54,006 nucleotides of DNA from a virus. Lineage: Duplodnaviria; Heunggongvirae; Uroviricota; Caudoviricetes. Position 1 is the first letter of the stretch; each line of letters begins with the position of its first letter. Shown here piece by piece: positions 1,239 through 38,088 of the stretch. The stretch lies in the IMG/VR virus record IMGVR_UViG_2718218355_000004. One strand, 5' to 3'. The notes beneath the pieces are model-generated. The model had not been told where the DNA came from, searched no databases, and saw nothing but the letters and a program-made list of their open reading frames with translations. A program made the position numbers and the translations under genes.

Positions 1239-1814
1239 CTACGGCAGTGCTGGCCATTCAATATCCTGTGAAGTTGACGTATCAACACGGTTCAGCAATA
1301 CCCGATACTTTTTCCATGCTTCCAGCAACGAGATTTCTTCCTCCGTTGCAATTTCCAGATCTGCAGCATCCTGAAGCGGCGCAATATGCTCACTGGCTAC
1401 CTGCATCAGGTTGTTTTTTGTTTCTTCCGCCTCCCGGATCCGGAACAGTTTTTCTGCTTCCGTATCCTTCACCCAGGCTGTGCCGTTCCACTTCTGAAAC
1501 TCCCCTTCCGGCGATAACCAGGTAACATTTTCCGGTAACGGACCGAGTTCAGAAATAAATAACGCGTCGCCGGAAGCCACGTCATAAACCGTTTTACCCC
1601 GATGATCTTCAACGAGATGCCACGATGCCTCATCACTGTTGAAAACAGCCACGAAGCCTGCCGGAATATCTGGCGGTGCAATATCGGTACTGTTTGCTGG
1701 CAGACCTGTATGAGGCGGAATATATGCATCACCTTCACCAATAAATTCATTAGTTCCGGCCAGCAGATTATAAATTGTTATGGTCCGTGGTTGTTCACTC
1801 ATTCTGAATACCAT
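1239..1814 (-). CDS. tfaR: Tail fiber assembly protein (Tfa)
   Basis: 191 aa immediately downstream of the side tail fiber gene with overlapping stop/start; sequence typical of Tfa chaperones. Confidence 0.8.
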
Positions 1815-4800
1815 TATGCAAGCCTCACAATATAGTTAAATGCGATGTTTTTGACGGTGTTTTCCGCGTTACCAGCAGCGTTAACGGTGATGGTGTGTCC
1901 ATGTGAGCCAATCGCAACGGAGTGCGTATGAGCACCAATACCGACAGTATGTGCATGTGCGCCTGCGCTTGCAGCAGTGCCGGACAGCGAGTGGGTATGA
2001 GCACCATCTGATGATGTCTTCCCTGCATTACGAGTCTGGCCACTACCGCTTGTTGTGCTCATAATCCCCGCGCTTAGATTTGAAATCGCGGTATAACCAT
2101 TAGGGAAAATGCTCGTGTTCGTGCCACCAAATGCACCGGAACTCTTGTGTTGGTGCGCACCGGCACTATTTGCAGTCCCGCTAATACTATGGGTATGCGC
2201 CCCGGTGTTATTCGTGGATTTGGTTCCGTAATCAAACGACGATGTGTTTTTCGTCCCCAAATCCGTACTGGATGCGCTGGCGCTGTGGGTGTGCGATTTA
2301 ATGCCGTCCTGTTCCTGAGATAATACGGCTCGACCACTGGCAGGTTTGCCCTTAATCGTCCAGCCACGCATATCAGGGATCACGCCTGACGGATAAGCGG
2401 CTGCAAGTTTTGGGTAGGCAGATTTGTCAAAAGTCTGCCCCTGCATCAGGGCATAACCAGACGGAACGGTATCTGATGGCCACGGGATTGGTGCACCGAC
2501 TGGATAAAACTCTGCAGGAGGATGAGCCGAGGTGTAAAGCTGCGCCCAACCACTTTCAAAACCATAACCGTCTCTTGAAGAACGGTAGAACAGACCACCA
2601 TTTCTGTAATGCGCCTTCATCTGCAAGGTCCGGCAACTTCCGACTCCGGTATAGAAGTTAACCAGAATATAGCTGTCGCCAGAGCGGGTGACATTGTAAG
2701 CGCCTGATTCGGCATTCCATGGAACGCCCCCATCCGCATCGGCATACGCATCCGTTGCTCTTCTGGCAAAAGCAGCCACATGCGCGGCGGTTAAAGTGAT
2801 ATCAGTAGAACCATCAAATGGAACACCGGATATTTTTCTTGCAGTCTGAAGTTTTGTAGCAGTTGCAGCATTACCAGTGGTGTTCTGATTACCCGTAGTG
2901 TTTACACCTGGAAGGTTAATATTTGCAGAACCGTCGAAAACAACTCCACCGATAGATCTTGCCGTCTGCAATTTCGTGGCTGTACTTGCATTACCATTCA
3001 ATGAACCAGTTAATCCACCTGTAACAGACAACGGACCTGAAACTGTTCCTCCGGTTGTTGGCAGTGCTCCAATATCTAACGGCGTCGGTTTCTGATGTGT
3101 GCTATACATCGTATAAACAACACCATCGGTAACGCTGGAAGGCTTACTCGCTGAATATGTTGGCGATGTATAAATAGAAACTGTCGCATTTGCAGTACAA
3201 TCCCAATGGATATTTACACGAGTCGCATAATTGCCAATCTCAACGTAAATATCATATGTATCGCCGGATGTGTTGATCCAGGCGAAATTCGTTAATCCGA
3301 CGGCTGTACGCTTCCACAAAGCCCCGGTAATTCCTTTGGGGTTTCCATTGCCTGCTCGTAGAACCAGTTCTGAAATGCCTGCCTGATGTGGGGAACCGAC
3401 GTTGTAACCAGCGCCACCAATCAATGCGATGTAAACGATGGAACTCGCTTGTGGCATGGTAACCGTAGCCAGTTTGAACCACCCAGCCCCGCCAGAGAAA
3501 GACATCGTTACTGAATTTAAAGTACCAATATCTTTCGGCGTTAATGTTATATCCGCAGTCAGTGCTTTTCCGTTAACTTTTCGGTTAGATGGCACCCTGC
3601 TATTCGCATTGTCATTGGCTGCTTTAACTGCTTTTGGCGTTGCGGCCAGCGATTCACTGGTGCTATCAACAGCACTGCTAAGTTTCACAACACCTTTAGT
3701 TGTAAGGCTTGCGTCTTCCATCGCAACTGCACCGGCAATCTCTTCAGCACGATCAGCAGCAGCTTCCGCACGGGTCGCAGCGGATTCAGCAGCAGTTTTG
3801 CTCTGAGATGCTGCCGTCGCACTGCCTGCCGCCTCTGTTGCTTTCGTGGATGCCGTCGTGGCGCTGCCCTTCGCTGCTGACGCCTGTCTGGTCGCCTCAT
3901 CTTTTGAAGCAGACGCAGATGATGCCGATGACGCTGCCGAACTGGCGGACGATGCGGCTGCCGTTTTTGAGGATTCTGCACGGGTTTCCGACGCTTTCGC
4001 ATTCGTTTCGGATGTCTTCGCTGCGGAAGCAGACCTCGCTGCTGAGCTGGCCTGTACAGCGGCTTCGCCAGCCTTCGTTGTGGCTGTTGAAGCGGACGAT
4101 GCAGCACTTTCTGCCGATTTTCCGGCGGCGGTGGCACTGGCTGAGGCCTGCCCGGCACTTGTTGACGCGGCACTGGCAGACGACGCAGCCGCTGTTTTTG
4201 AGCCTGCCGCAGCTGAGGCACTCTGTCCCGCTGCCGTTTCAGAAGCCTTGGCGTTCGTCTCGGACGTTTTTGCCGCCTTCGCAGAATTTGCTGTCGCCGT
4301 TGCCGAGGAAGCTGCGCTGCTGGCGCTCGAGGCTGCGCTCGTTTCTGATGATTTTGCCGCCTCTTTTGAAGCCGACGCATCCCGGGCTGAGGTGGCAGCT
4401 TCTGACGCTTTCGTGGTCGCGGTGGATGCTGAAGTGGCTGCTGATTGTTGTGACGCTGCCGCATTCGTTTCTGACGTTTTTGCCGCAGCGGCACTGGTGG
4501 CCGCCGCGCTTTTTGAGGACTCTGCAGCGGCAGCACTTTTTGATGCTTCAGTGGCCTTTGCTGATGCCGTTCCTGCGCTGGAAGACGCTGACTGAGCCGA
4601 CGAAGCGGCCTGTCCGGCTGACGTGCTGGCTGCGCGTGCTGAGCCTGCAGCATCAGTCGCATGGGTTGCCGCCTCACGGGCAGATGTGCCGGCATCGCCG
4701 GCTGACTTCTTCGCGGCTGCCGTGTTCTGTGCCACTGCGGACGCGTTACGCGCCACCTCTTCCACCATCAGTTCAAAACGGCGCAGTGCCTCTGGCCGGA

Positions 4801-8800: not shown

Positions 8801-9324
8801 CGCGGCGGCAGGTTATCCACCACCACCGAGGCCAGATACTGTGAAGTGGTTTTACCCTTAATGGTGATGTCTTTTTCCGTCACCCAGCCACCGTTACGCT
8901 GTATCTGAACCAGCAGGCGGACTTCCGACGGATTCCTGTCCCCCTTTGAGGTGGTTTCCACCAGTGCCTGCACGCCGAAAGTAAAACGCAGACGGTCAAT
9001 GTTTGCCGACGTGATGGTCCTGGTGATCGGCGTGTCATATTTCACTTCTGTACCGAGCACCGTCTCGGAGCCGGAGGATTCAAATCCCTCCGGCGGTGTC
9101 TGCTCCTGCTCACCGGCCCGGAACACCACCGTGACGCCGGATATATTGGTATTCCCCTCACTGTCCAGCACTGGCGTACTGTTCAGCAGCACGCTTTTTA
9201 ATCCATCCACCGGACCTTCAACCGGCCCTTCGCTGATGGCATCGATCACACTCAGCAACTGCGTGGACTTCAGGTTGTCCTTCGCTTCGCGCGGAGTATG
9301 CCCCTTACTGCTGCCTTTACCCAT
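5827..9324 (-). CDS. Host specificity protein J (tail tip / central fiber)
   Basis: 1165 aa; lambda gpJ-like sequence throughout, following I/K/L/M in lambda order. Confidence 0.9.
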
Positions 9325-9383
9325 TCCTCACGCTCCATAAACGACAAAACCGCCCGGAGGCGGTTTCACATAAACGTTTTTCA

Positions 9384-10055
9384 TCAGCGACCAATCACCA
9401 CAACCTGACCACCATCCCCTTCGTCTGCCGTGCTGATCTCCTGAGAGACCACCCGCGACCCCACGCGCATTTCACCGTACAGAACCGGCAGAACATTGCC
9501 CTGGGCAACCATGTTATCCAGTGAGGAGAAATAGGTGTTCTGCTTACCGTTATCCGTTGTCTGTGTACGGGGAGTTCTGGCTTTCGGTGCCAGCATCTGC
9601 GCCACACCACCGAGCACCATACTGGCACCGAGAGAAAACAGGATGCCGGTCATACCACCGGTCCCAATGGCTGCCCCCCATGCTGCAAGGGTGGCTCCGG
9701 CGGTAAAGAATGATCCGGCAATGGCGGCAGCCCCCAGGACAATCTGGAATACGCCACCTGACTTGGCCCCGGCGACTCTGGGAACAATATGAATCACAGC
9801 GCCATCAGGCAGAGTCTCATGTAACTGCGCCGTTAACCCGGACGTGCTGACGTCCCGCCCGGCAATCCGTACCTGATACCAGCCGTCGCTCAGTTTCTGA
9901 CGAAACGCCGGGAGCTGTGTGGCCAGTGCCCGGATGGCTTCAGCCCCCGTTTTCACACGAAGGTCGATGCGGCGACCAAATCGTTGTAAATCCCCGTAAA
10001 GGCAGATGCGCGCCATGCCCGGTGACGCCAGAGGGAGTGTGTGCGTCGCTGCCAT
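9384..10055 (-). CDS. Tail assembly protein I
   Basis: 223 aa, lambda gpI-like, with Gly/Ala-rich hydrophobic C-terminal half; position between K and J. Confidence 0.8.
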   Translation of the reverse strand: MAATHTLPLASPGMARICLYGDLQRFGRRIDLRVKTGAEAIRALATQLPAFRQKLSDGWYQVRIAGRDVSTSGLTAQLHETLPDGAVIHIVPRVAGAKSGGVFQIVLGAAAIAGSFFTAGATLAAWGAAIGTGGMTGILFSLGASMVLGGVAQMLAPKARTPRTQTTDNGKQNTYFSSLDNMVAQGNVLPVLYGEMRVGSRVVSQEISTADEGDGGQVVVIGR

Positions 10056-27740: not shown

Positions 27741-29198
27741 TTAGGAGCGCCAAAAAAAACCTGAAAACAATATAATAACAGGATAAATTTCAAGGCGACC
27801 AAGAATCATAGCTATGCACATTAAACATTTTGCAATGTCATTAAGCACTCCGAATGACGATGCAGTAGCCCCAAAACCTAATCCCATATTATTAATACAT
27901 GCAGCCACTGTTGCAAATGATGTAAGAAAATCATATCCCATACCATTTAACACCAGTATAAAAAACACCGTGAAGAGAGTATAAAGAAAAAAGAAACTCC
28001 ATACAGACCTCATTACACGATCTGTAACTATCTTCCCTCCTACATTTACACTCAACAACGCTCTGGGATGAGAAAGCTGATTTATCTCGTGTTTGCTTTG
28101 TTTGAAAAGTATAAGAAATCGAAGTGACTTAATTCCACCACAAGTTGAACCTATACATCCCCCAAAGAAACTTGACAACAGCAAAAACACTATCGTGTGC
28201 GTGGGCCAACTTGCATAATCTTGCGTAGCTAAACCATTATCAGTGAGCATGGAGCTGGCAAGAAAAAACGAATGAATAAAACTTCCATGCAAGTCATACA
28301 TACCTATATGCCAGACCTGGAAAGAGGTAACAATGATCACCCCTAAGGCTATTAACAGAAAGAAACGAAGTTCAATATCTCTGATTAAAGGTTTTATCGT
28401 TTTCCTGCTAATAACAATATACCAAAGAGTGAAGTTGAAAGCCGATAGCAGGGAAAAAGAACCAGCCACCAGCTCAACCAAATAGTTATTAAAATATCCG
28501 ATACTCTCGCTATGAGTTGAGAAACCACCAAGCGAAACTGTGGAAATCCCGTGACAAATAGCATCAAACAAAGGCATTCCTGCAAGTCTATAACAGACAA
28601 TACAAGCAATACCTAATAAAGAATAAGTTATCCACAGTGTCCGTGACGTATCGGCCAGGCGGGGAGTGAGTTTGTCATCCTTAAATGGCCCCGGCATTTC
28701 TGACTGATAAAGCTTTGCACCACCAATACCCAATAATGGCAATACAGCAACCGCCAGAACAATAACTCCTAAACCACCTATAAAATTTAACTGTGACCGA
28801 TAGTACAAATATGCCCGAGGTAATGAACTAACATCATCAATTACAGTTGCTCCTGTTGTTGTTATTCCAGAAACCCCTTCAAACAGAGCATCAATGAACG
28901 TTAAATTAAGTTCTGAGTCAATCCATAAAGGGAATGCACTAATAACAGAAAACAAAATCCAAAACATTACAATTATAATAAACCCATCACGGGTACGTAA
29001 TTGAATGCCAGATTTCTTAGTTGTATACCACGCTCCGCCACCAATGCAAAAAAATATAACGAAAGTTATAAAGAAAACGAACAGGCTTTTTTCTTTATAA
29101 AACAATGCTACAACCATTGGTGGCAACATTGAAAGACTATAGAGCCAAACCAGGAACCCACACATATGAGTAACAACTCTTACATGAGATGTATTCAT
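27741..29198 (-). CDS. trkG: Trk-system K+ uptake protein TrkG (TrkH/TrkG family)
   Basis: Polytopic membrane protein; start set to ATG at MNTSHVRV; visibly AT-rich relative to neighbours. Confidence 0.9.
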   Translation of the reverse strand: MNTSHVRVVTHMCGFLVWLYSLSMLPPMVVALFYKEKSLFVFFITFVIFFCIGGGAWYTTKKSGIQLRTRDGFIIIVMFWILFSVISAFPLWIDSELNLTFIDALFEGVSGITTTGATVIDDVSSLPRAYLYYRSQLNFIGGLGVIVLAVAVLPLLGIGGAKLYQSEMPGPFKDDKLTPRLADTSRTLWITYSLLGIACIVCYRLAGMPLFDAICHGISTVSLGGFSTHSESIGYFNNYLVELVAGSFSLLSAFNFTLWYIVISRKTIKPLIRDIELRFFLLIALGVIIVTSFQVWHIGMYDLHGSFIHSFFLASSMLTDNGLATQDYASWPTHTIVFLLLSSFFGGCIGSTCGGIKSLRFLILFKQSKHEINQLSHPRALLSVNVGGKIVTDRVMRSVWSFFFLYTLFTVFFILVLNGMGYDFLTSFATVAACINNMGLGFGATASSFGVLNDIAKCLMCIAMILGRLEIYPVIILFSGFFWRS

Positions 29199-29335
29199 AT
29201 CTAAATATTCTTTCAATTATAACCACCTTGCTGCAATATTATGATTATACTGTATAAAATTTAACTCCTCTTAGATCTTACTTCACTGTTCCTTATGAAA
29301 CAATCATCAAAATGAATCATATTGTAGTTAAGATT

Positions 29336-29800
29336 TTACTTTAAACACTGCTCGGTTATGTATTGCTGAGCACCTTCAAGTTGGGCCTGCATCATTACCA
29401 GTCGTTCCCGGAGGGTGAAATAATCCCGTTCAGCGGTGTCTGCCAGTCGGGGGGAGGCTGCATTATCCACGCCGGAGGCGGTGGTGGCTTCACGCACTGA
29501 CTGACAGACTGCTTTGATGTGCAACCGACGACGACCAGCGGCAACATCATCACGCAGAACATCATTTTCAGCTTTCGCATCAGCTAACTCCTTCGTGTAT
29601 TTTGCATCGAGCGCAGCAACATCACGCTGACGCATCTGCATGTCAGTAATTGCCGCGTTCGCCAGCTTCAGTTCTCTGGCATTTTTGTCGCGCTGTTCTT
29701 TGTAGGCGATGGCGTTATCACGGTAATGATTAACACCCCATGACAGGCAGACGACGATGCAGATAACCAGAGCGGAGATAATCGCGGTTACTCTGTTCAT
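29336..29800 (-). CDS. Rz-like i-spanin
   Basis: N-terminal TM anchor followed by coiled-coil periplasmic domain; start overlaps endolysin stop; contains embedded Rz1. Confidence 0.8.
29395..29580 (-). CDS. Rz1-like o-spanin lipoprotein
   Basis: ORF embedded out-of-frame inside Rz; lipobox VVGC and a proline-rich stretch. Confidence 0.75.
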
Positions 29801-30294
29801 TGCTGACCCCACAAACAGATTTCACGCTCAATCTCACGACGAGTCATGAGACCTTTCCATTGCTTACCGCCAGCATATGTCCAGCGACGTAGCTGATCAC
29901 ATGCGCCTTTGATATCGCCCTGGTTTATTTTGCGAAGAAGCGTCGATGTTCTGAAATTGCCAGCACCCACGTTGTAAACGAATGAGTAAAGAGCGCCGCG
30001 CGTTGTTTCCGGTATATCGACTTTGATGTACGGGTTAATTTGTCTGGCGACCGTGGCAAGGTCTTTATTCAGGAGGGCTTTGCATTCTGCTTTGGTATAC
30101 GTTTTACCGAGCATGATGTCTTTTCCTGTATGCCCGTGACATACAGTCCATACACCAACAATATCTTTGTATGGTATGTAGCTGACACCTTCCAGACCAT
30201 CGTTACCACTTGGGCCAGTGATTAACACTGATGCTATAGCAATTGCTCCGCCACCAATAGCAGCAGCAACGACTTTTCGTAATGATGGAGGCAT
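29797..30294 (-). CDS. SAR endolysin (phage lysozyme, GH24-like)
   Basis: 165 aa with Gly/Ala-rich N-terminal signal-arrest-release segment and a lysozyme-like catalytic region. Confidence 0.85.
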
Positions 30295-30509
30295 TATTCA
30301 CCTCTCGCAGCCTTGCGCTTATCTTCTTTAATCTTGAAATAAAGGTTTGTCAGGTACGTCAGCAGGCCAAATACCAGACTACCCAGCACACCGATTGCAG
30401 CCCACTGTGACGGAGTTACTCTATCGAGCAACTGTAAAAACCAGTAGCCAGCACTGCCTGCGGAGGTGCCGTAGGCAATGCCTGTTGAAATTTTGTCCAT
30501 GGATTTCAT
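30294..30509 (-). CDS. Class II holin (phage 21 S-type pinholin)
   Basis: Start at MKSMDK (dual-start motif) with GGAGGTGAGG SD; two TM helices; charged C-terminus; overlaps endolysin start. Confidence 0.85.
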
Positions 30510-30611
30510 AGCCTCACCTCCGCACGGAACGGATGGCATAGTTATTATGTGTAGGCTTTCAGACACATCAATCAGAGCCTTAATTGATATATATGCTGGA
30601 GACGATGCAAT

Positions 30612-30635
30612 ATAAAAAGCTCGCCGTAGCGAGCT
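30612..30635 (-). terminator. Rho-independent terminator between the TolA-like genes and the holin
   Basis: Minus-strand AGCTCGC-TACG-GCGAGCT perfect 7-bp stem followed by TTTTTAT. Confidence 0.5.
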
Positions 30636-30760: not shown

Positions 30761-31156
30761 CTAACCTCGCATGTCAAAGCCAGATTTCTGAAAATCTCTG
30801 TAGACTTCCGGATTGTTGAAGGCCGGAAATTTGGCTTTATGAGCTGCGGACTTTATCGCTTCGCAATAGGCTTTATCACCGTTACTGGTAGATATTTTTA
30901 ACGCCGTGCCATCCTGAGAGAATTCCATATGCAACCTGCATTTTTTCCCTTTCCAGTTATGCGGCTCATCAAGTTTGGCATTAATTGCAGCTCTGATTCC
31001 CCGCGCTTGCGCCCCCCATTCATCCTGATCATCCCAGCGTCCTGAACTGCAACTACCTGTAGCAGTAGTTTTGTGGCAATCTGAAGGGTGTAAAGGTGTG
31101 CATCCCGCAACAAAACCGACCCAAAAAGTCAACATAACGATTTTCTTTAATCCCAC
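30761..31156 (-). CDS. Lipoprotein with TolA C-terminal domain (domain III)-like region, paralogue 2
   Basis: 131 aa; GTG start with GAGGAG SD; signal peptide plus lipobox VAGC; C-terminal region shares the spaced GKKC-L / DG / GD-C / EVY-F pattern with the neighbouring paralogue. Confidence 0.55.
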   Translation of the reverse strand: MGLKKIVMLTFWVGFVAGCTPLHPSDCHKTTATGSCSSGRWDDQDEWGAQARGIRAAINAKLDEPHNWKGKKCRLHMEFSQDGTALKISTSNGDKAYCEAIKSAAHKAKFPAFNNPEVYRDFQKSGFDMRG

Positions 31157-31306
31157 TTCTTGCTCCTCAATCCATTAAAATCTCAGCAATAGTAGTTGTT
31201 ACGTCCGCCACTGGCTCAGAGCTGACTATCCGCTAAATTTAGCTCAGTGCCGTAGCTGTGTCAGAACAAACCTAAGCCGAAACCGTTTATTACAAAACAA
31301 TAAATA

Positions 31307-31735
31307 TCAGGGTTTAAAATCCAGCACCCCATTTTGAAATACTTTATATACTTCCGGCGAAGGGGGGGCAGGTATATCAGCATTCTTTATCGCATTCATC
31401 GCTTCACGACATAAATCGAGGTCTCCACTTTCTCTTTTAACCTCCAGTAGAAGGCCATTCGGGGCCATATGCATTCTCAGTGTACACTCTTTTCCTGAAT
31501 ACTTACTCGCATCCCCGAACTGTTTTTCGATGGCGCTCTTGATTTGATGGGCATACAGACGGATATCCTCACTAACATCAGAAGTACGTTCAGATGAACT
31601 CACATACTGTGTCTCTATTGCTTTATCGGAGTAATATGATGTACGGTCATGATAATTTGTCGATACAGCATCAGTGCACCCGATAATAATCCCACTAATA
31701 ATCAACGTAAGAATTGATGCGCTACGAAAACCCAT
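31307..31735 (-). CDS. Lipoprotein with TolA C-terminal domain (domain III)-like region, paralogue 1
   Basis: 142 aa; signal peptide plus lipobox IIGC; C-terminal 85 aa (QIKSAIEKQF...GKECTLRMHMAPNGLLLEV...IPAPPSPEVYKVFQNGVLDFKP) closely resembles my recollection of the TolA C-terminus. Confidence 0.6.
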   Translation of the reverse strand: MGFRSASILTLIISGIIIGCTDAVSTNYHDRTSYYSDKAIETQYVSSSERTSDVSEDIRLYAHQIKSAIEKQFGDASKYSGKECTLRMHMAPNGLLLEVKRESGDLDLCREAMNAIKNADIPAPPSPEVYKVFQNGVLDFKP

Positions 31736-32326
31736 TTTTCCTCACATATGTCATATAGTAAAGGATTATATATACCGTTGTTTTGGACGCTCAAACAGCG
31801 AATCAGATCAAATAAAACGCACATTTGTTAACATTTACACAAAGTCTGCGTGGGATATTCTGAAAGAATATCCATAATGTGGAGAGAATCTATTGAAGTG
31901 CATGGTGCCGGGTGCCTCCCGGTGAACAAAATGTTCGTGATACCTGTCGGCGACAGAAAAGGTTAATGGTATCACCCCACCGCACAGGGGGATTCACCAT
32001 GCAGGAGTTTTCTTAGCAAACTCACTGCGCGCCCGGCAACTCCCAACCACATAAAATGCGGAGTTTGTGGTATTTATGCATATAACTCGCAGGAATTATC
32101 TTAAAAAACTGATGTCGATCCGGATTAAAAAGAAGCAGGTCATCATCAGATGACTGGAAAAAAGGAAAACAAAAAATACTCATCATACAGTTTTGATTGC
32201 AGGGATGAGCCTGCTATGCACAATATGCAGAATATAAGCAAGATAAAAATATGCAGGCATATTATTTCGGATTTTGTTATTAACACAACCTTTTTAATAA
32301 TCATTTGGCATACAATAAACCAGCCC

Positions 32327-32352
32327 AAAAAGAACCGCCTAAACAGGCGGTT
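32327..32352 (-). terminator. Rho-independent terminator on the minus strand
   Basis: AACCGCC-TGTTTA-GGCGGTT followed by CTTTTT on the minus strand, just below the IS2 insertion. Confidence 0.45.
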
Positions 32353-32600
32353 GGTCAATACAAAGGATGCTTCGTCTTTATTATAGTAATCTGAGGCGTC
32401 GGGTGTCTTGTATCAGACAACATATTGTCCCGCTAAACAGCGAATTACAAACCACCCTGCAATGATCTCTCATCTCATTTTATATGAGTTGACGACATCA
32501 GGATAACGCTAGACTGGCCCCCTGAATCTCCAGACAACCAATATCACTTAAATAAGTGATAGTCTTAATACTAGTTTTTAGACTAGTCATTGGAGAGCAG

Positions 32601-32966
32601 ATGATTGATGTCTTAGGACCGGAGAAACGCAGACGGCGTACTACACAGGAAAAGATCGCTATTGTTCAGCAGAGTTTTGAACCGGGAATGACGGTCTCCC
32701 TTGTTGCCCGGCAACACGGTGTGGCAGCCAGCCAGTTATTTCTCTGGCGCAAGCAATACCAGGAGGGAAGTCTTACTGCTGTGGCCGCAGGAGAGCAGGT
32801 CGTTCCTGCCTCTGAACTTGCTGCTGCCATGAAGCAGATTAAAGAACTCCAGCGCCTGCTCGGCAAAAAAACGATGGAAAATGAACTCCTTAAAGAAGCC
32901 GTTGAATACGGGCGTGCAAAAAAGTGGATAGCGCACGCGCCCTTATTGCCCGGGGATGGGGAGTAA
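32601..32966 (+). CDS. insC: IS2 transposase OrfA (InsC)
   Basis: 121 aa from ATG at [13 protein letters not shown]; HTH transposase N-terminal domain. Confidence 0.9.
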
Positions 32967-33829
32967 GCTTAGTCAGCCGTTGTCTCCGGGTGTCGCGTGC
33001 GCAGTTGCACGTAATTCTCAGACGAACCGATGACTGGAAAGATGGTCGCCGCAGCCGTCACTCAGATGATACGGATGTGCTTCTCCGTATACACCATGTT
33101 ATCGGAGAGCTGCCCACGTATGGTTATCGTCGGGTATGGGCGCTGCTTCGCAGACAGGCCGAACTTGATGGTATGCCTGCGATCAATGCCAAACGTGTTT
33201 ACCGGATCATGCGCCAGAATGCGCTGTTGCTTGAGCGAAAAACCGCTGTACCGCCATCGAAACGGGCACATACTGGCAAAGTGGCCGTGAAAGAAAGCAA
33301 TCAACGATGGTGCTCTGACGGGTTCGAGTTCCGCTGTGATAACGGAGAAAAACTGCGAGTCACGTTCGCGCTGGACTGCTGTGACCGTGAGGCACTGCAC
33401 TGGGCAGTCACTACGGGCGGCTTCGACAGTGAAACAGTACAGGACGTAATGCTGGGAGCGGTGGAACGCCGCTTCGGCAACGAGCTTCCGGCGTCTCCAG
33501 TAGAGTGGCTGACGGATAATGGTTCATGCTACCGGGCTAATGAAACACGGCAGTTTGCCCGGATGTTGGGGCTTGAACCGAAGAACACGGCGGTGCGGAG
33601 TCCGGAGAGTAACGGCATAGCAGAGAGCTTCGTGAAAACGATAAAGCGTGACTACATCAGTATCATGCCTAAACCAGACGGGTTAACGGCAGCAAAGAAC
33701 CTTGCAGAGGCGTTCGAGCATTATAACGAATGGCATCCGCATAGTGCACTGGGTTATCGCTCGCCACGGGAATATCTGCGGCAGCAGGCCAGTAATGGGT
33801 TAAGTGATAACAGGTGTCTGGAAATATAG
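32924..33829 (+). CDS. insD: IS2 transposase OrfB (InsD), DDE catalytic domain
   Basis: 301 aa overlapping insC in the -1 frame (typical IS3-family OrfAB arrangement). Confidence 0.9.
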
Positions 33830-34009
33830 GGGCAAATCCAAACGCATCATCAGCCCCTGCCAAGAAATATCAAAACTCCCGCCAGCAATGTGTTATCACA
33901 ATATTGTAAAAAAAACACAGCACCGAAACTATAACTGGTCTCTGTTATAATTTGGAGCAGAAAGACCAGTTGCCCAACTAGCAGCATTCTCCCCTGCTTT
34001 CCTGACGTA

Positions 34010-34115: not shown

Positions 34116-34658
34116 TCAAGCCATTTTCTCAGCAAATGATTCACGCATGGGAATATATAGGGCATACTCAGCAACAGCTAACCAATTAGCAATCCGTTTT
34201 TCGCATGTGCTAAAACACCACTCTGGGTGTGCATCATTTAGCAATTCAGCCATTTTGCGCTTAGTCATCCCCCGCCCTTCATAGCGTTGCCGGAGAATGC
34301 AAATCAATCCTGGATGCTCTGCCAGCACCTCACTTATGACTCGATCAATACATAACGCCTCTGCATCAGTACAATGCGCCAGCCAGCTCTTTTGCTTGCC
34401 GTTGATCATCTCTCGCAAAAACGCTTCCAGCTCAGCTTTCTCTATTCCCGCTTTTTTCATTCTGCGCAGGGCTTCATTAATGGCTGTTTTCGTCAGTTTT
34501 TTGGATGCCAACAACTGATTGAACATATTCCCTGACCTGCCACCGCCAATATACGACCAGCGCCCCCACATACGTAGTTTTCCCTGAATCCAGACACTTT
34601 CCAGCGTGGTGAGGCGAAGGTGTTCTCCGCTTTTTCCTGTATTCGTTGGGTAAATCAT
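34116..34658 (-). CDS. Putative late-gene antiterminator (Q-like)
   Basis: 180 aa in the Q position (after ybcO-like gene, before a terminator and the lysis region); assignment by position and general resemblance only. Confidence 0.4.
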   Translation of the reverse strand: MIYPTNTGKSGEHLRLTTLESVWIQGKLRMWGRWSYIGGGRSGNMFNQLLASKKLTKTAINEALRRMKKAGIEKAELEAFLREMINGKQKSWLAHCTDAEALCIDRVISEVLAEHPGLICILRQRYEGRGMTKRKMAELLNDAHPEWCFSTCEKRIANWLAVAEYALYIPMRESFAEKMA

Positions 34659-36168: not shown

Positions 36169-36379
36169 AGCCTGCTTCTCCTTGCCTTCCGGCGCGTAAG
36201 AGGCTAACCTACATGTGCAAAGCATGAAATTGGCCTCAGATTAATGTTAAGCGTCTTGCCGGACGCGTAATGTTATCTGGGGCTTTTCTCTATCTGCCTT
36301 TGGTGTTCATGCCTGAGGCAGATAGCCTCAAGCACCCGCAGCAATTCTACTTAACTCCCGTCACCTCGCCAATATAAAA

Positions 36380-36469
36380 TCAATCAGAAAGGCGATCCAT
36401 AAGAACAACAGCAAGACAATAAATTGCCATTACAGCCGCAATAGCTAGCGCACATTTGAGAACCAGCAC
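36380..36469 (-). CDS. Candidate small hydrophobic peptide (29 aa)
   Basis: GTG start 5 nt after a perfect AGGAGG SD; translation MLVLKCALAIAAVMAIYCLAVVLMDRLSD; different frame from the 74-aa Cys-rich track ORF. Confidence 0.3.
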   Translation of the reverse strand: MLVLKCALAIAAVMAIYCLAVVLMDRLSD

Positions 36470-36888
36470 GACAACCTCCTGTATTGGACGTACACCAGTT
36501 CTGATAAATATGAGGCTGTCTCATCATTGATTCAATATAACTATTGGGTATAGTTTCTGTGATTTTGTTCTGTAGAAATGGAACACAACAACCAGTCACC
36601 ACCAGCACTTCTTTAAATACGCCAAGTCCGACGCAAGCTAACCTTCTAGTCCGCTTTGAGCGAGGAGCGGACCAAACCCGGCCAACTGACTCTTAAAGGG
36701 GCCGCAGGAATTTTTCGTCTGAACTTTCGAAGCTCCTCTCCCTGAAGACAGAAAACTTCTGTGTGCTGTGGGAATATTGAATCTTTGCCTTAGATATAAA
36801 TAATTTTATCCCGCCTGAAGTTTACATTATTTTATTTATCTGTTTTTCTAAATCAGACTGCACTCCTTACTTAAATCAGGAGCCAGTC

Positions 36889-38088
36889 ATGCCATTTGTT
36901 ATTTATGTGTTTACTATCAGTGCCTTTGCGCTCGGACTCGCGGAATTTGTCCCCATTGGGCTGACAGACGTTATGGCTCAGGGGTTGTGTGTGGGTGTGG
37001 AGCAGACCGGGGCAGCGGTTACAACCTATGCACTGGGGGCAACGTTCGCGGCACCCGTACTGTCTGCGCTGACAGCAAGCTGGAGCCGGAAAAATGTAAT
37101 GCTTACAACTGCCGTTGTGTTTACTGCCGGTAGTCTGGCGGCCGCGTTTGCAGCCACATTACCTCAGCTCCTGTTAGCGCGGTTCATTGCTGGTCTGGGA
37201 CACGGCCTGTTTCTGGCTGCGGCATCCAGTACCGCAGCTCGTCTTGCTGGACCGGGTAAAGCAGGCAGAGCGGTGGCTGTGGTATTTGGTGGCTTTACTC
37301 TGGCGATGGCAATCGGCGTACCGCTGAGTACATGGTTGGGGGGGGTGGTCTCATGGCGTCCAGTTCTCGGCGCTATTGCCGCTTTTGGCGCGTTCGGATT
37401 CCTTGGACTGTTGTTCGGTATGAAAGATCCCGTACGCAGCGTGCCCGGTGAACATAGTGACTCAGCAATGCAGAATATCGGCATGCTGTTTAACCGTAAG
37501 TTGCTGGCCGGCGCGCTGGTTACGGTGCTGGCGTATGCAGGCTCGTTTACGGATTACACCTTTATCGCACCTATTCTGACGCAGGTGACAGGGGTTACCG
37601 GAGCAACGGTGAGTCTGTTTATGCTGGTTTACGGTATTACAGCTGCGGTAGGTAATATTCTTGGTGGGAAACTTACCGACAGCATGGGGGTTAATCGTGC
37701 CAATATACTCATCATTAGCGGCATTGTTGTTGTCGTGCTTGGTATGTGGCTGCTGTCATCCTCACCGGTGAGCATGGGCATTCTGGTTGCGCTGCTGGGT
37801 ATGGTGACATTTGCCGCAGTGCCGGCACTGCAGGCCCGTCTGATTGGTGTCGCTGAGCAACATGCTCCTCATGCGCATGGTGTTGCTGCCGGCCTGAATA
37901 TTGCGGGCTTCAACTCAGGTATAGCGCTGGGATCAGTACTGGGCAGCATTACTATAAGCCACGCCGGTATCGTGTATACCGGTATCAGCGGTGCGATTGT
38001 TTCTCTGCTCGGCCTGCTGTTGCTGCTTGCACAAATCCGTCGCAGCCACAGTCGTAAATTTCAACAGGTTAAAATCGTAGGCCAGTAA
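36889..38088 (+). CDS. MFS transporter (sugar/drug efflux-like)
   Basis: 399 aa with about 12 predicted TM helices and an MFS-type loop 2-3 motif. Confidence 0.8.
   Translation: MPFVIYVFTISAFALGLAEFVPIGLTDVMAQGLCVGVEQTGAAVTTYALGATFAAPVLSALTASWSRKNVMLTTAVVFTAGSLAAAFAATLPQLLLARFIAGLGHGLFLAAASSTAARLAGPGKAGRAVAVVFGGFTLAMAIGVPLSTWLGGVVSWRPVLGAIAAFGAFGFLGLLFGMKDPVRSVPGEHSDSAMQNIGMLFNRKLLAGALVTVLAYAGSFTDYTFIAPILTQVTGVTGATVSLFMLVYGITAAVGNILGGKLTDSMGVNRANILIISGIVVVVLGMWLLSSSPVSMGILVALLGMVTFAAVPALQARLIGVAEQHAPHAHGVAAGLNIAGFNSGIALGSVLGSITISHAGIVYTGISGAIVSLLGLLLLLAQIRRSHSRKFQQVKIVGQ

Follow-up and report, generated by a model that had tools for sequence, protein, structure and literature searches.

Tandem prophage genes encode predicted outer-membrane lipoproteins that carry TolA domain III and may act as decoys for Tol-dependent invaders

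A 54,006-nucleotide (nt) stretch of DNA from a tailed virus (Caudoviricetes; IMG/VR record IMGVR_UViG_2718218355_000004), referred to as the window, contains two adjacent genes, A and B, whose products are predicted to be exported, lipid-anchored lipoproteins that tether a disulfide-containing TolA domain III (TolA-III). Most plausibly, though we advance this only tentatively, they serve as uncoupled decoys for Tol-dependent invaders. A sequence-only reading had described two open reading frames (ORFs) of 142 and 131 amino acids (aa) with lipoprotein signals and the lipoboxes IIGC and VAGC, all of which we recover, and had proposed that they resemble TolA's C-terminal domain. Profile and structure comparisons bear this proposal out. 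Against Pfam PF06519 (TolA C-terminal domain; gathering cutoff 25 bits), A scores 82.6 bits (E = 2.4e-23) and B scores 54.6 bits (E = 1.3e-14), and phmmer matches A to the solved E. coli TolA-III chains in the PDB with E-values of ~1e-27 to 5e-28. The AlphaFold2 model of A superimposes on 2x9a_B, TolA-III solved with the g3p of phage IF1, at 0.6 Å over 88 columns with a template modelling (TM) score of 0.96, and Foldseek places the model of B on 3qdp at 1.1 Å over 83 columns (TM 0.89, 32% identity). The predicted local distance difference test score exceeds 90 across the domain in both models and is below 50 for residues 1-49 of A. Identity to residues 334-421 of E. coli TolA is 59.1% for A and 30.7% for B.

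In A, a signal peptide and a disordered linker of ~30 aa precede TolA-III at residues ~50-142, which closely mimics its E. coli counterpart. In B, the lipobox is followed by a linker containing Cys27-x8-Cys36 and by a diverged TolA-III at residues ~42-131. The 20-30 residues past the lipobox are disordered in both models. The fold, strands, helices and disulfide pair of E. coli TolA-III (residues ~334-421; 1S62, 3QDP, 1TOL and 2X9A) all recur in A and B, and both cysteines corresponding to the E. coli pair C363-C388 are present in A, in B and in all 25 aligned sequences. The two proteins differ from E. coli TolA in what lies ahead of this domain. Neither has the inner-membrane helix (domain I) or the long helical domain II, so both would be uncoupled from TolQR and the proton-motive force, and each carries a lipoprotein anchor instead.

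Judged by sequence, neither A nor B is TolA proper, and the database name 'TolA' is a misnomer. Against the NCBIfam TolA equivalog NF007065, A scores 107.8 and B 53.7, compared to a cutoff of 213, and the matches are confined to positions ~293-386 of the 387 in the profile. Of the two proteins, only A exceeds the TIGR02794 cutoff (75.6 against 59.45), and its match covers no more than the C-terminal 98 positions. Since the equivalog models match just the C-terminal part, it is from this match that the TolA names and a pseudogene flag arise. In RefSeq, as annotated by the Prokaryotic Genome Annotation Pipeline (PGAP; NZ_CP033250.1, features at 9162-9968), A appears either as a tolA pseudogene said to be 'missing N-terminus' or under the name 'cell envelope integrity protein TolA', and 'colicin import membrane protein' is also in use. 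PGAP starts B seven codons late, yielding a 124-aa product. The naming of A and the late start of B look like systematic annotation errors that affect more than 1000 contigs, and thousands of RefSeq records wrongly name A 'TolA' or a tolA pseudogene.

Both genes are preceded by Shine-Dalgarno sequences, GTGAGGaaaaATG ahead of A and GAGGAGcaagaaGTG ahead of B. The start position and Shine-Dalgarno sequence of B are conserved in its plasmid, Enterobacter, Serratia and Citrobacter copies, which speaks for a 131-aa product rather than the 124-aa call. The N-termini of A (MGFRSASILTLIISGIIIGC) and B (MGLKKIVMLTFWVGFVAGC) each comprise a basic n-region, a hydrophobic core and a lipobox, IIGC20|T in A and VAGC19|T in B. 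The lipobox cysteine is invariant across both families in an alignment of 22 sequences, and position +2 is threonine in both proteins. Under the Lol sorting rule, the absence of aspartate at this position predicts an outer-membrane anchor for A and B. We infer that both proteins are attached at the outer membrane's inner face.

Taken at face value, the pseudogene flag would make A a fragment of tolA and B a decaying copy, both non-functional debris. Apart from the PGAP label itself ('tolA, incomplete, missing N-terminus'), this explanation can draw on truncated and frameshifted variants such as P0130, but we regard it as very improbable. The flag stems from an equivalog model that matches only the C-terminal quarter of the profile, and the ORFs are intact, with Shine-Dalgarno sequences, signal peptides and lipoboxes. 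The ratio of nonsynonymous to synonymous substitution rates (dN/dS) is 0.26 for the domain and 0.36 for the whole gene in A, and 0.06-0.09 and 0.08-0.12, respectively, in B. Values below one for both genes indicate purifying selection and hence functional genes. In 782 genomes the identity of A is 99% or more, and diverged but intact 142-aa alleles occur elsewhere. These selection and conservation data contradict the pseudogene reading. A recent capture of E. coli tolA by a phage is likewise rejected: every E. coli should carry tolA, yet of the 5426 complete E. coli genomes blastn with A (~65-70% sensitivity) hits no more than 898 and detects no similarity to tolA itself.

The sequence-only reading had called A and B a paralogous pair. 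They are indeed homologous (BLASTP E = 2e-18), but their 29% identity, together with their membership in separate lineages that also occur apart, argues against a recent duplication. The A lineage resides mainly in Escherichia and Shigella prophages, where intact alleles of 142 aa occur at 91%, 74% and ~66% identity. The 66% allele stands alone, without B, in another prophage type in which the gene order is Q (Antiterm family), TfpB, an AraC-like gene, tRNAs, A, a nanS-p-like gene and holin; the lone A-type gene thereby occupies the position that stx has in Stx phages. The Q-to-holin slot of that prophage is rich in cargo, with a TfpB-family gene, an AraC-type regulator, two tRNA genes and a nanS-p-like esterase. 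Members of the B lineage in Citrobacter, Enterobacter, Klebsiella, Raoultella and Serratia are 78-89% identical, and the Cys-x8-Cys linker segment, PLHPSxCHKTTATGSC, is conserved within the family. A C7 homopolymer lies in A at 31362-31368 (minus strand), near codon ~123. The P0130 variant (158 aa, three contigs) is frameshifted at this tract and loses the C-terminal β3 strand, which could reflect either slippage-prone on/off variation or sequencing error.

The A-B pair is present in ~14% of complete E. coli genomes. By blastn, A occupies 962 places in the 898 matching genomes, 959 of them chromosomal (782 records at ≥99% identity), and B occurs in 1269 of the 5426; its places number 826 on chromosomes and 536 on plasmids, and 784 records reach ≥99% identity. 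Searching with B by tblastn returned 1297 plasmid records, of which ~690 represent more distant TolA-III genes, mostly from Klebsiella. Among 50,697 GenBank phage records, either gene is found only in mEp460, a functional phage that carries the pair at 99-100% amino-acid identity between Q and holin. The best 80 of 149 matches in IMG/VR were inspected; all represent the same allele and add no diversity. In IMG/VR, 77 contigs extend for 650 nt or more downstream of A, and in every one of them B follows A and is followed by the same holin allele. In these 77 contigs, the endolysin and Rz genes and the DNA upstream of position 31926 vary, and the cassette occurs on at least two backbones. The pair thus lies between Q and the lysis genes, is present in some related phages and absent from others, and travels as a cassette on different backbones, in keeping with the moron slot suggested for it at the outset.

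B-type genes extend well beyond phages. On I-complex conjugative plasmids (IncI1/B/O, IncK2/Z and IncI-gamma/K1), B is on the same strand as the nikB relaxase gene and 68 nt behind it, with a terminator-like hairpin between the two. The pili of I-complex plasmids are the receptors of the TolA-dependent phage If1. Plasmid pO157 was considered as an independent IncF leading-region context and rejected: its B-type gene lies in a 2.7-kb block that matches, at 99% identity, the I-complex plasmid segment made up of B and the 3′ end of nikB, which identifies this copy as a relic of an IncI-type relaxase region. On pO157, the IncI-type relaxase fragment is placed after psiB-psiA-hok. In Enterobacter, B-type genes sit among ordinary metabolic genes of the chromosome at 24 similar places. 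In Serratia marcescens, the B-type gene is immediately upstream of GmrSD-like (DUF262) and HEPN-domain genes in a setting that resembles a defence island, and in Citrobacter it is found close to WYL and ars genes.

TolA-III is required by group A colicins and by filamentous phages alike. The N1 domain of g3p, colicin N and the TolB N-terminus engage the β3 edge and helix α1 (PMC4339652; PMC7391070), and the TolA substitutions D418P and K420P abolish binding of colicin N, g3p and TolB (PMC4339652). Colicin A uses the β2 edge, 375-LLDIKP-380, along with K368, K379 and K396 (PMC3365938). Reported TolA-III affinities are ~1 µM for g3p and colicin N and 13-200 µM for TolB (PMC7391070, PMC4339652), with a later surface plasmon resonance fit in one of these papers giving 12-15 µM for g3p N1. 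A is identical to TolA at 11 of the 16 α1 positions, at 7 of the 10 β3-edge positions (including L417-D418-F419-K420-P421) and at 4 of the 8 colicin A positions (HLLEVKRK), where it retains L375, L376, K379 and K396. The corresponding counts for B are 4, 2 and 2 (EALKISTH). The α1 and β3 contact region is therefore TolA-identical at 18 of 26 positions in A and at 6 of 26 in B. The 'motif-for-motif' match to TolA that had been claimed for the first protein applies to A, which keeps the LDFKP motif, but not to B.

The contact positions of B show no significant enrichment of TolA-identical residues relative to the rest of its domain (p = 0.45). The B surface is nearly invariant within its family yet unlike that of TolA, which points to a different, specific ligand. 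We considered the linker/N-cap segment SSGRWDDQDEW of B as a mimic of the colicin TolB box (DG[ST]GWSSE...W) and found no support for this, as the key aspartate is missing and the tryptophan spacing differs. W47 of B aligns with TolA I337 in helix α1, and the AlphaFold2 model positions SSGRWDDQDEW at the start of that helix.

If A and B act as decoys, copies of TolA-III would sit where colicin translocation domains and the N1 domain of phage g3p first enter the periplasm. Through its β3 edge (LDFKP), most of α1 and half of the colicin A box, A could capture these invaders in dead-end complexes, and the lysogen would become tolerant to group A colicins and filamentous phages. Given affinities of ~1 µM for the parasite ligands and 13-200 µM for TolB, a low level of decoy could be selective, and modest amounts might titrate invaders with little damage to Tol-Pal. 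B, as an older and separate lineage with a remodelled surface, probably has another ligand set. A lysogen would be expected to make some of both proteins from their own weak promoters, with strong Q-dependent read-through following after induction.

Several precedents are consistent with such a role. Levengood-Freyermuth, Click and Webster are said to have found in 1993 that exported TolAIII gave colicin and phage tolerance. Small accessory lipoproteins of the outer membrane, among them Llp of phage T5, Cor of phi80 and N15, plasmid-encoded TraT and lambda Bor, shield their carriers from phages, colicins or DNA. Llp, Cor and TraT mask an outer-membrane receptor (FhuA, OmpA), whereas A and B would imitate the tip of a periplasmic transducer and have no sequence or fold relation to them. 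When TolAIII is fused to a signal sequence, E. coli releases periplasmic protein and has a leaky outer membrane (Wan & Baneyx 1998 and Levengood-Freyermuth 1993, work that PMC6195910 cites and makes use of). This engineered protein is, like A and B, a free TolA-III domain exported to the periplasm, but it is soluble, overproduced and artificial, while A and B are natural and lipid-anchored, represent two lineages and are presumably present at a low native level. Cells that produce g3p N1 in the periplasm resist colicin A and take up phage at a level 4 logs lower, effects ascribed to TolA sequestration (PMC10424213). The TolA-III/ligand interface is the same as that envisaged here, with the roles inverted: there an overproduced ligand occupies TolA, whereas in the present case the ligand would be occupied by a TolA-III copy. 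The cargo-like spread of the genes, across mEp460, the IMG/VR backbones, the prophage site of the lone A-type gene, pilus-encoding plasmids, the GmrSD/HEPN neighbourhood in Serratia and a bacteriocin plasmid, also counts in favour of the decoy proposal.

A number of observations weigh against it. B lacks most TolA contact residues, including all but two of the eight in the colicin A box, and a simple TolA-mimic decoy leaves it unexplained. The contact positions of A are not significantly better conserved than other positions of its domain (18/26 versus 34/62; Fisher p = 0.24). B-type genes in Enterobacter occupy an ordinary chromosomal neighbourhood. At E ≤1, A, B and a related Klebsiella TolA-III lipoprotein (see below) match no defence model in PADLOC-DB 2.0, and full-text literature searches turned up no functional study of the A and B proteins, whose binding and phenotype are deduced here. 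The promoter-like sites listed in Table 1 are weak evidence, in that the region holds 10 such sites compared to 7.8 expected from shuffled sequence; its terminator-like sites number 4 compared to 3.7, an excess in neither case. Moreover, the promoter-like site ahead of A is not conserved upstream of the 66%-identical allele in the other prophage type, which leaves its role as a promoter unproven. A search for a conserved promoter ahead of the A alleles found none, the upstream sequences being unrelated between alleles. A should, in addition, still bind TolB, and a high local level could inhibit Tol-Pal.

This last point leads to the main alternative, in which A and B are late-expressed antagonists of Tol-Pal: Q-dependent read-through would flood the periplasm with tethered TolA-III, capture the TolB N-terminus, block Pal mobilisation and leave the outer membrane destabilised or hypervesiculating before lysis. 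Within the late transcription unit the pair immediately precedes holin, the A-B-holin linkage persists in all 77 contigs while R/Rz and the upstream flank vary, A keeps the TolB-binding residues of β3, and exported TolAIII makes the outer membrane leaky in the account cited above. We nonetheless consider this explanation unlikely. A complete spanin pair is already available to the phage for disrupting the outer membrane, B-type genes are common on conjugative plasmids and on chromosomes without lysis genes, and related TolA-III lipoproteins are found on bacteriocin and IncR plasmids. The flanking terminators and promoter-like sites also fit independently expressed cargo.

The Enterobacter gene context suggests a physiological role in the envelope, and a further alternative is that the lipoproteins, B especially, have a non-parasite ligand of their own, such as a Tol-Pal or peptidoglycan partner or an I-complex conjugation factor, and are carried for host fitness in the manner of Bor or TraT. 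Several properties of B speak for this: its surface is unlike TolA and yet the protein remains 78-89% identical across genera at the low dN/dS given above, the Cys-x8-Cys segment is conserved, the Enterobacter neighbourhood is housekeeping-like and the gene closely follows nikB on I-complex plasmids. Against this, a terminator-like hairpin separates nikB from B on those plasmids, the chromosomal site differs from genus to genus with defence genes adjoining in Serratia, which looks like mobile cargo, and no candidate partner is evident. On balance this alternative, too, seems improbable to us, and we retain the decoy proposal as the working explanation.

Standalone TolA-III lipoproteins form a large family. 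A HMMER scan with A against 1.84 billion cluster representatives gave 126 matches at E ≤1e-10. At least 40 of the 60 short matches (~107-168 aa) examined have a lipobox, none of these 40 has aspartate at +2, and several other short matches have ordinary signal peptides. On the 10,060-bp Klebsiella ColRNAI plasmid NZ_CP031718.1, a 123-aa TolA-III lipoprotein (lipobox LLTAC|K, C-terminus NAPLDFRP) and a 121-aa TonB C-terminal domain protein with a signal peptide are encoded in tandem (1512-2245, minus strand), divergently from an operon for cloacin-type bacteriocin, immunity and lysis proteins. The occurrence of genes of this sort on a cloacin plasmid has been mentioned in passing, without study (PMC10269471). 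Like A and B, the Klebsiella pair combines a short TolA-III lipoprotein with a second transducer-tip domain in tandem on a mobile element, but the second protein there carries an ordinary signal peptide and a TonB C-terminal domain, and a bacteriocin operon takes the place of the phage lysis cassette. On the Klebsiella IncR plasmid NZ_CP141857.1 (5217-6246, plus strand), a 144-aa TolA-III lipoprotein directly follows a thioredoxin/DsbA-like periplasmic protein, which may be a dedicated oxidoreductase for the domain disulfide.

The domain and family are already recognised by RefSeq, RAST, Pfam and PHROG 5772, which limits the description of the pair as an undescribed system to its function, for which we found no published study. 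A prophage 'TolA' mentioned in a transcriptome paper proved to refer to a tail-fibre gene. What appears to be uncharacterised is a class of naturally occurring TolA-III proteins, lipid-anchored and motor-less, that phages and plasmids carry. It is possible, if doubtful, that phages, plasmids and islands of Enterobacterales share a form of 'import immunity', in which TolA-III or TonB tips that are tethered to the outer membrane or secreted intercept bacteriocins and g3p independently of cognate immunity, with A and B supplying two ligand specificities. As A is found in about one-sixth and B in about one-quarter of complete E. coli genomes, decoys of this kind would, if real, be a major hidden factor for colicin sensitivity, bacteriocin-based therapeutics and the host range of M13 and If1. 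Tol-Pal research could also profit from such a naturally uncoupled, outer-membrane TolA-III in telling binding apart from force transduction. The decoy hypothesis can be tested cheaply by standard spot and plaque assays.

The surroundings of A and B in the window are summarised in Table 1. The gene order, Q-like antiterminator, A, B, holin, endolysin and Rz, is that of a lambdoid late region, as judged from ORFs and PHROG matches, and it places the pair between Q with its putative late promoter and holin, as had been read from the sequence. The two bracketing terminators reported earlier are also found as hairpins on the minus strand, and the one upstream of A lies just downstream of a promoter-like site that is, by its position, a candidate late promoter.

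Table 1 Genes and sequence elements around A and B in the window
Feature	Position	Strand	Details and basis
Gene A	31307-31735	-	142 aa, ATG; ORF search
Gene B	30761-31156	-	131 aa, GTG; ORF search
Q-like late antiterminator, DUF1133 type	34116-34658	-	PHROG 753 'anti-termination protein Q-like', E 2e-79
Lysis cassette, directly downstream of B	29336-30566	-	PHROG matches holin/endolysin/spanin, E 1e-29 to 1e-78
Holin	30294-30566	-	PHROG
Endolysin	29797-30294	-	PHROG
Rz	29336-29812	-	PHROG
Rz1 lipoprotein, embedded	29395-29580	-	PHROG
Terminator-like hairpin between B and holin gene	30618-30635	-	AGCTCGCtacgGCGAGCT then TTTTTATATTG; consensus scan and direct reading
Terminator-like hairpin upstream of A	32333-32352	-	AACCGCCtgttTAGGCGGTT then CTTTTTGG; consensus scan and direct reading
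Promoter-like site AAGACA-18-TATAAT	32380-32409	-	10/12 consensus match; candidate late promoter (pR'-like)
Sigma-70 promoter-like site TTGAGC-18-TATAAT	31765-31794	-	10/12 consensus match; ~30 nt upstream of A start
Weak promoter-like site CTGACA-17-TAAATT, A-B spacer	31236-31264	-	9/12 consensus match
STnc100 small RNA family (Rfam), full-length match	31846-32032	-	86.6 bits against gathering score 47, E 4e-18
IS2-like insertion, 1331 bp, 5-bp target duplication	32510-33840	+	Transposase ORFs

Within the A-B spacer, a CTGACAnAGCTAnGGnACTGAG block is common to the prophage and I-complex plasmid copies, and across all contexts only the part proximal to the Shine-Dalgarno sequence is conserved. 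The STnc100 element lies ~110 nt upstream of A and also occurs in mEp460 and in IMG/VR contigs (86.6-114 bits overall); homology with mEp460 stops at 31926, inside the element. It could represent either a leader for A or a small RNA made from the late-promoter region.

The IS2-like element separates the Q-like gene from the promoter/terminator pair (32409-32333). It is strain-specific, being missing in strain ECCHD184 according to blastn breakpoints, and in this strain it may alter or uncouple the late transcription that enters the A-B-lysis region. On the nin/hokD side of the window, no repressor, replication or integrase region was seen, and the prophage therefore looks defective. Past the nin region and hokD (~36170-36889), host genes begin at ~36889 with an MFS transporter, a gamma-glutamylcyclotransferase and a LysR gene. 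At the other end of the late region, the potassium transporter gene trkG (27741-29216, minus strand) lies inside the prophage directly after Rz.

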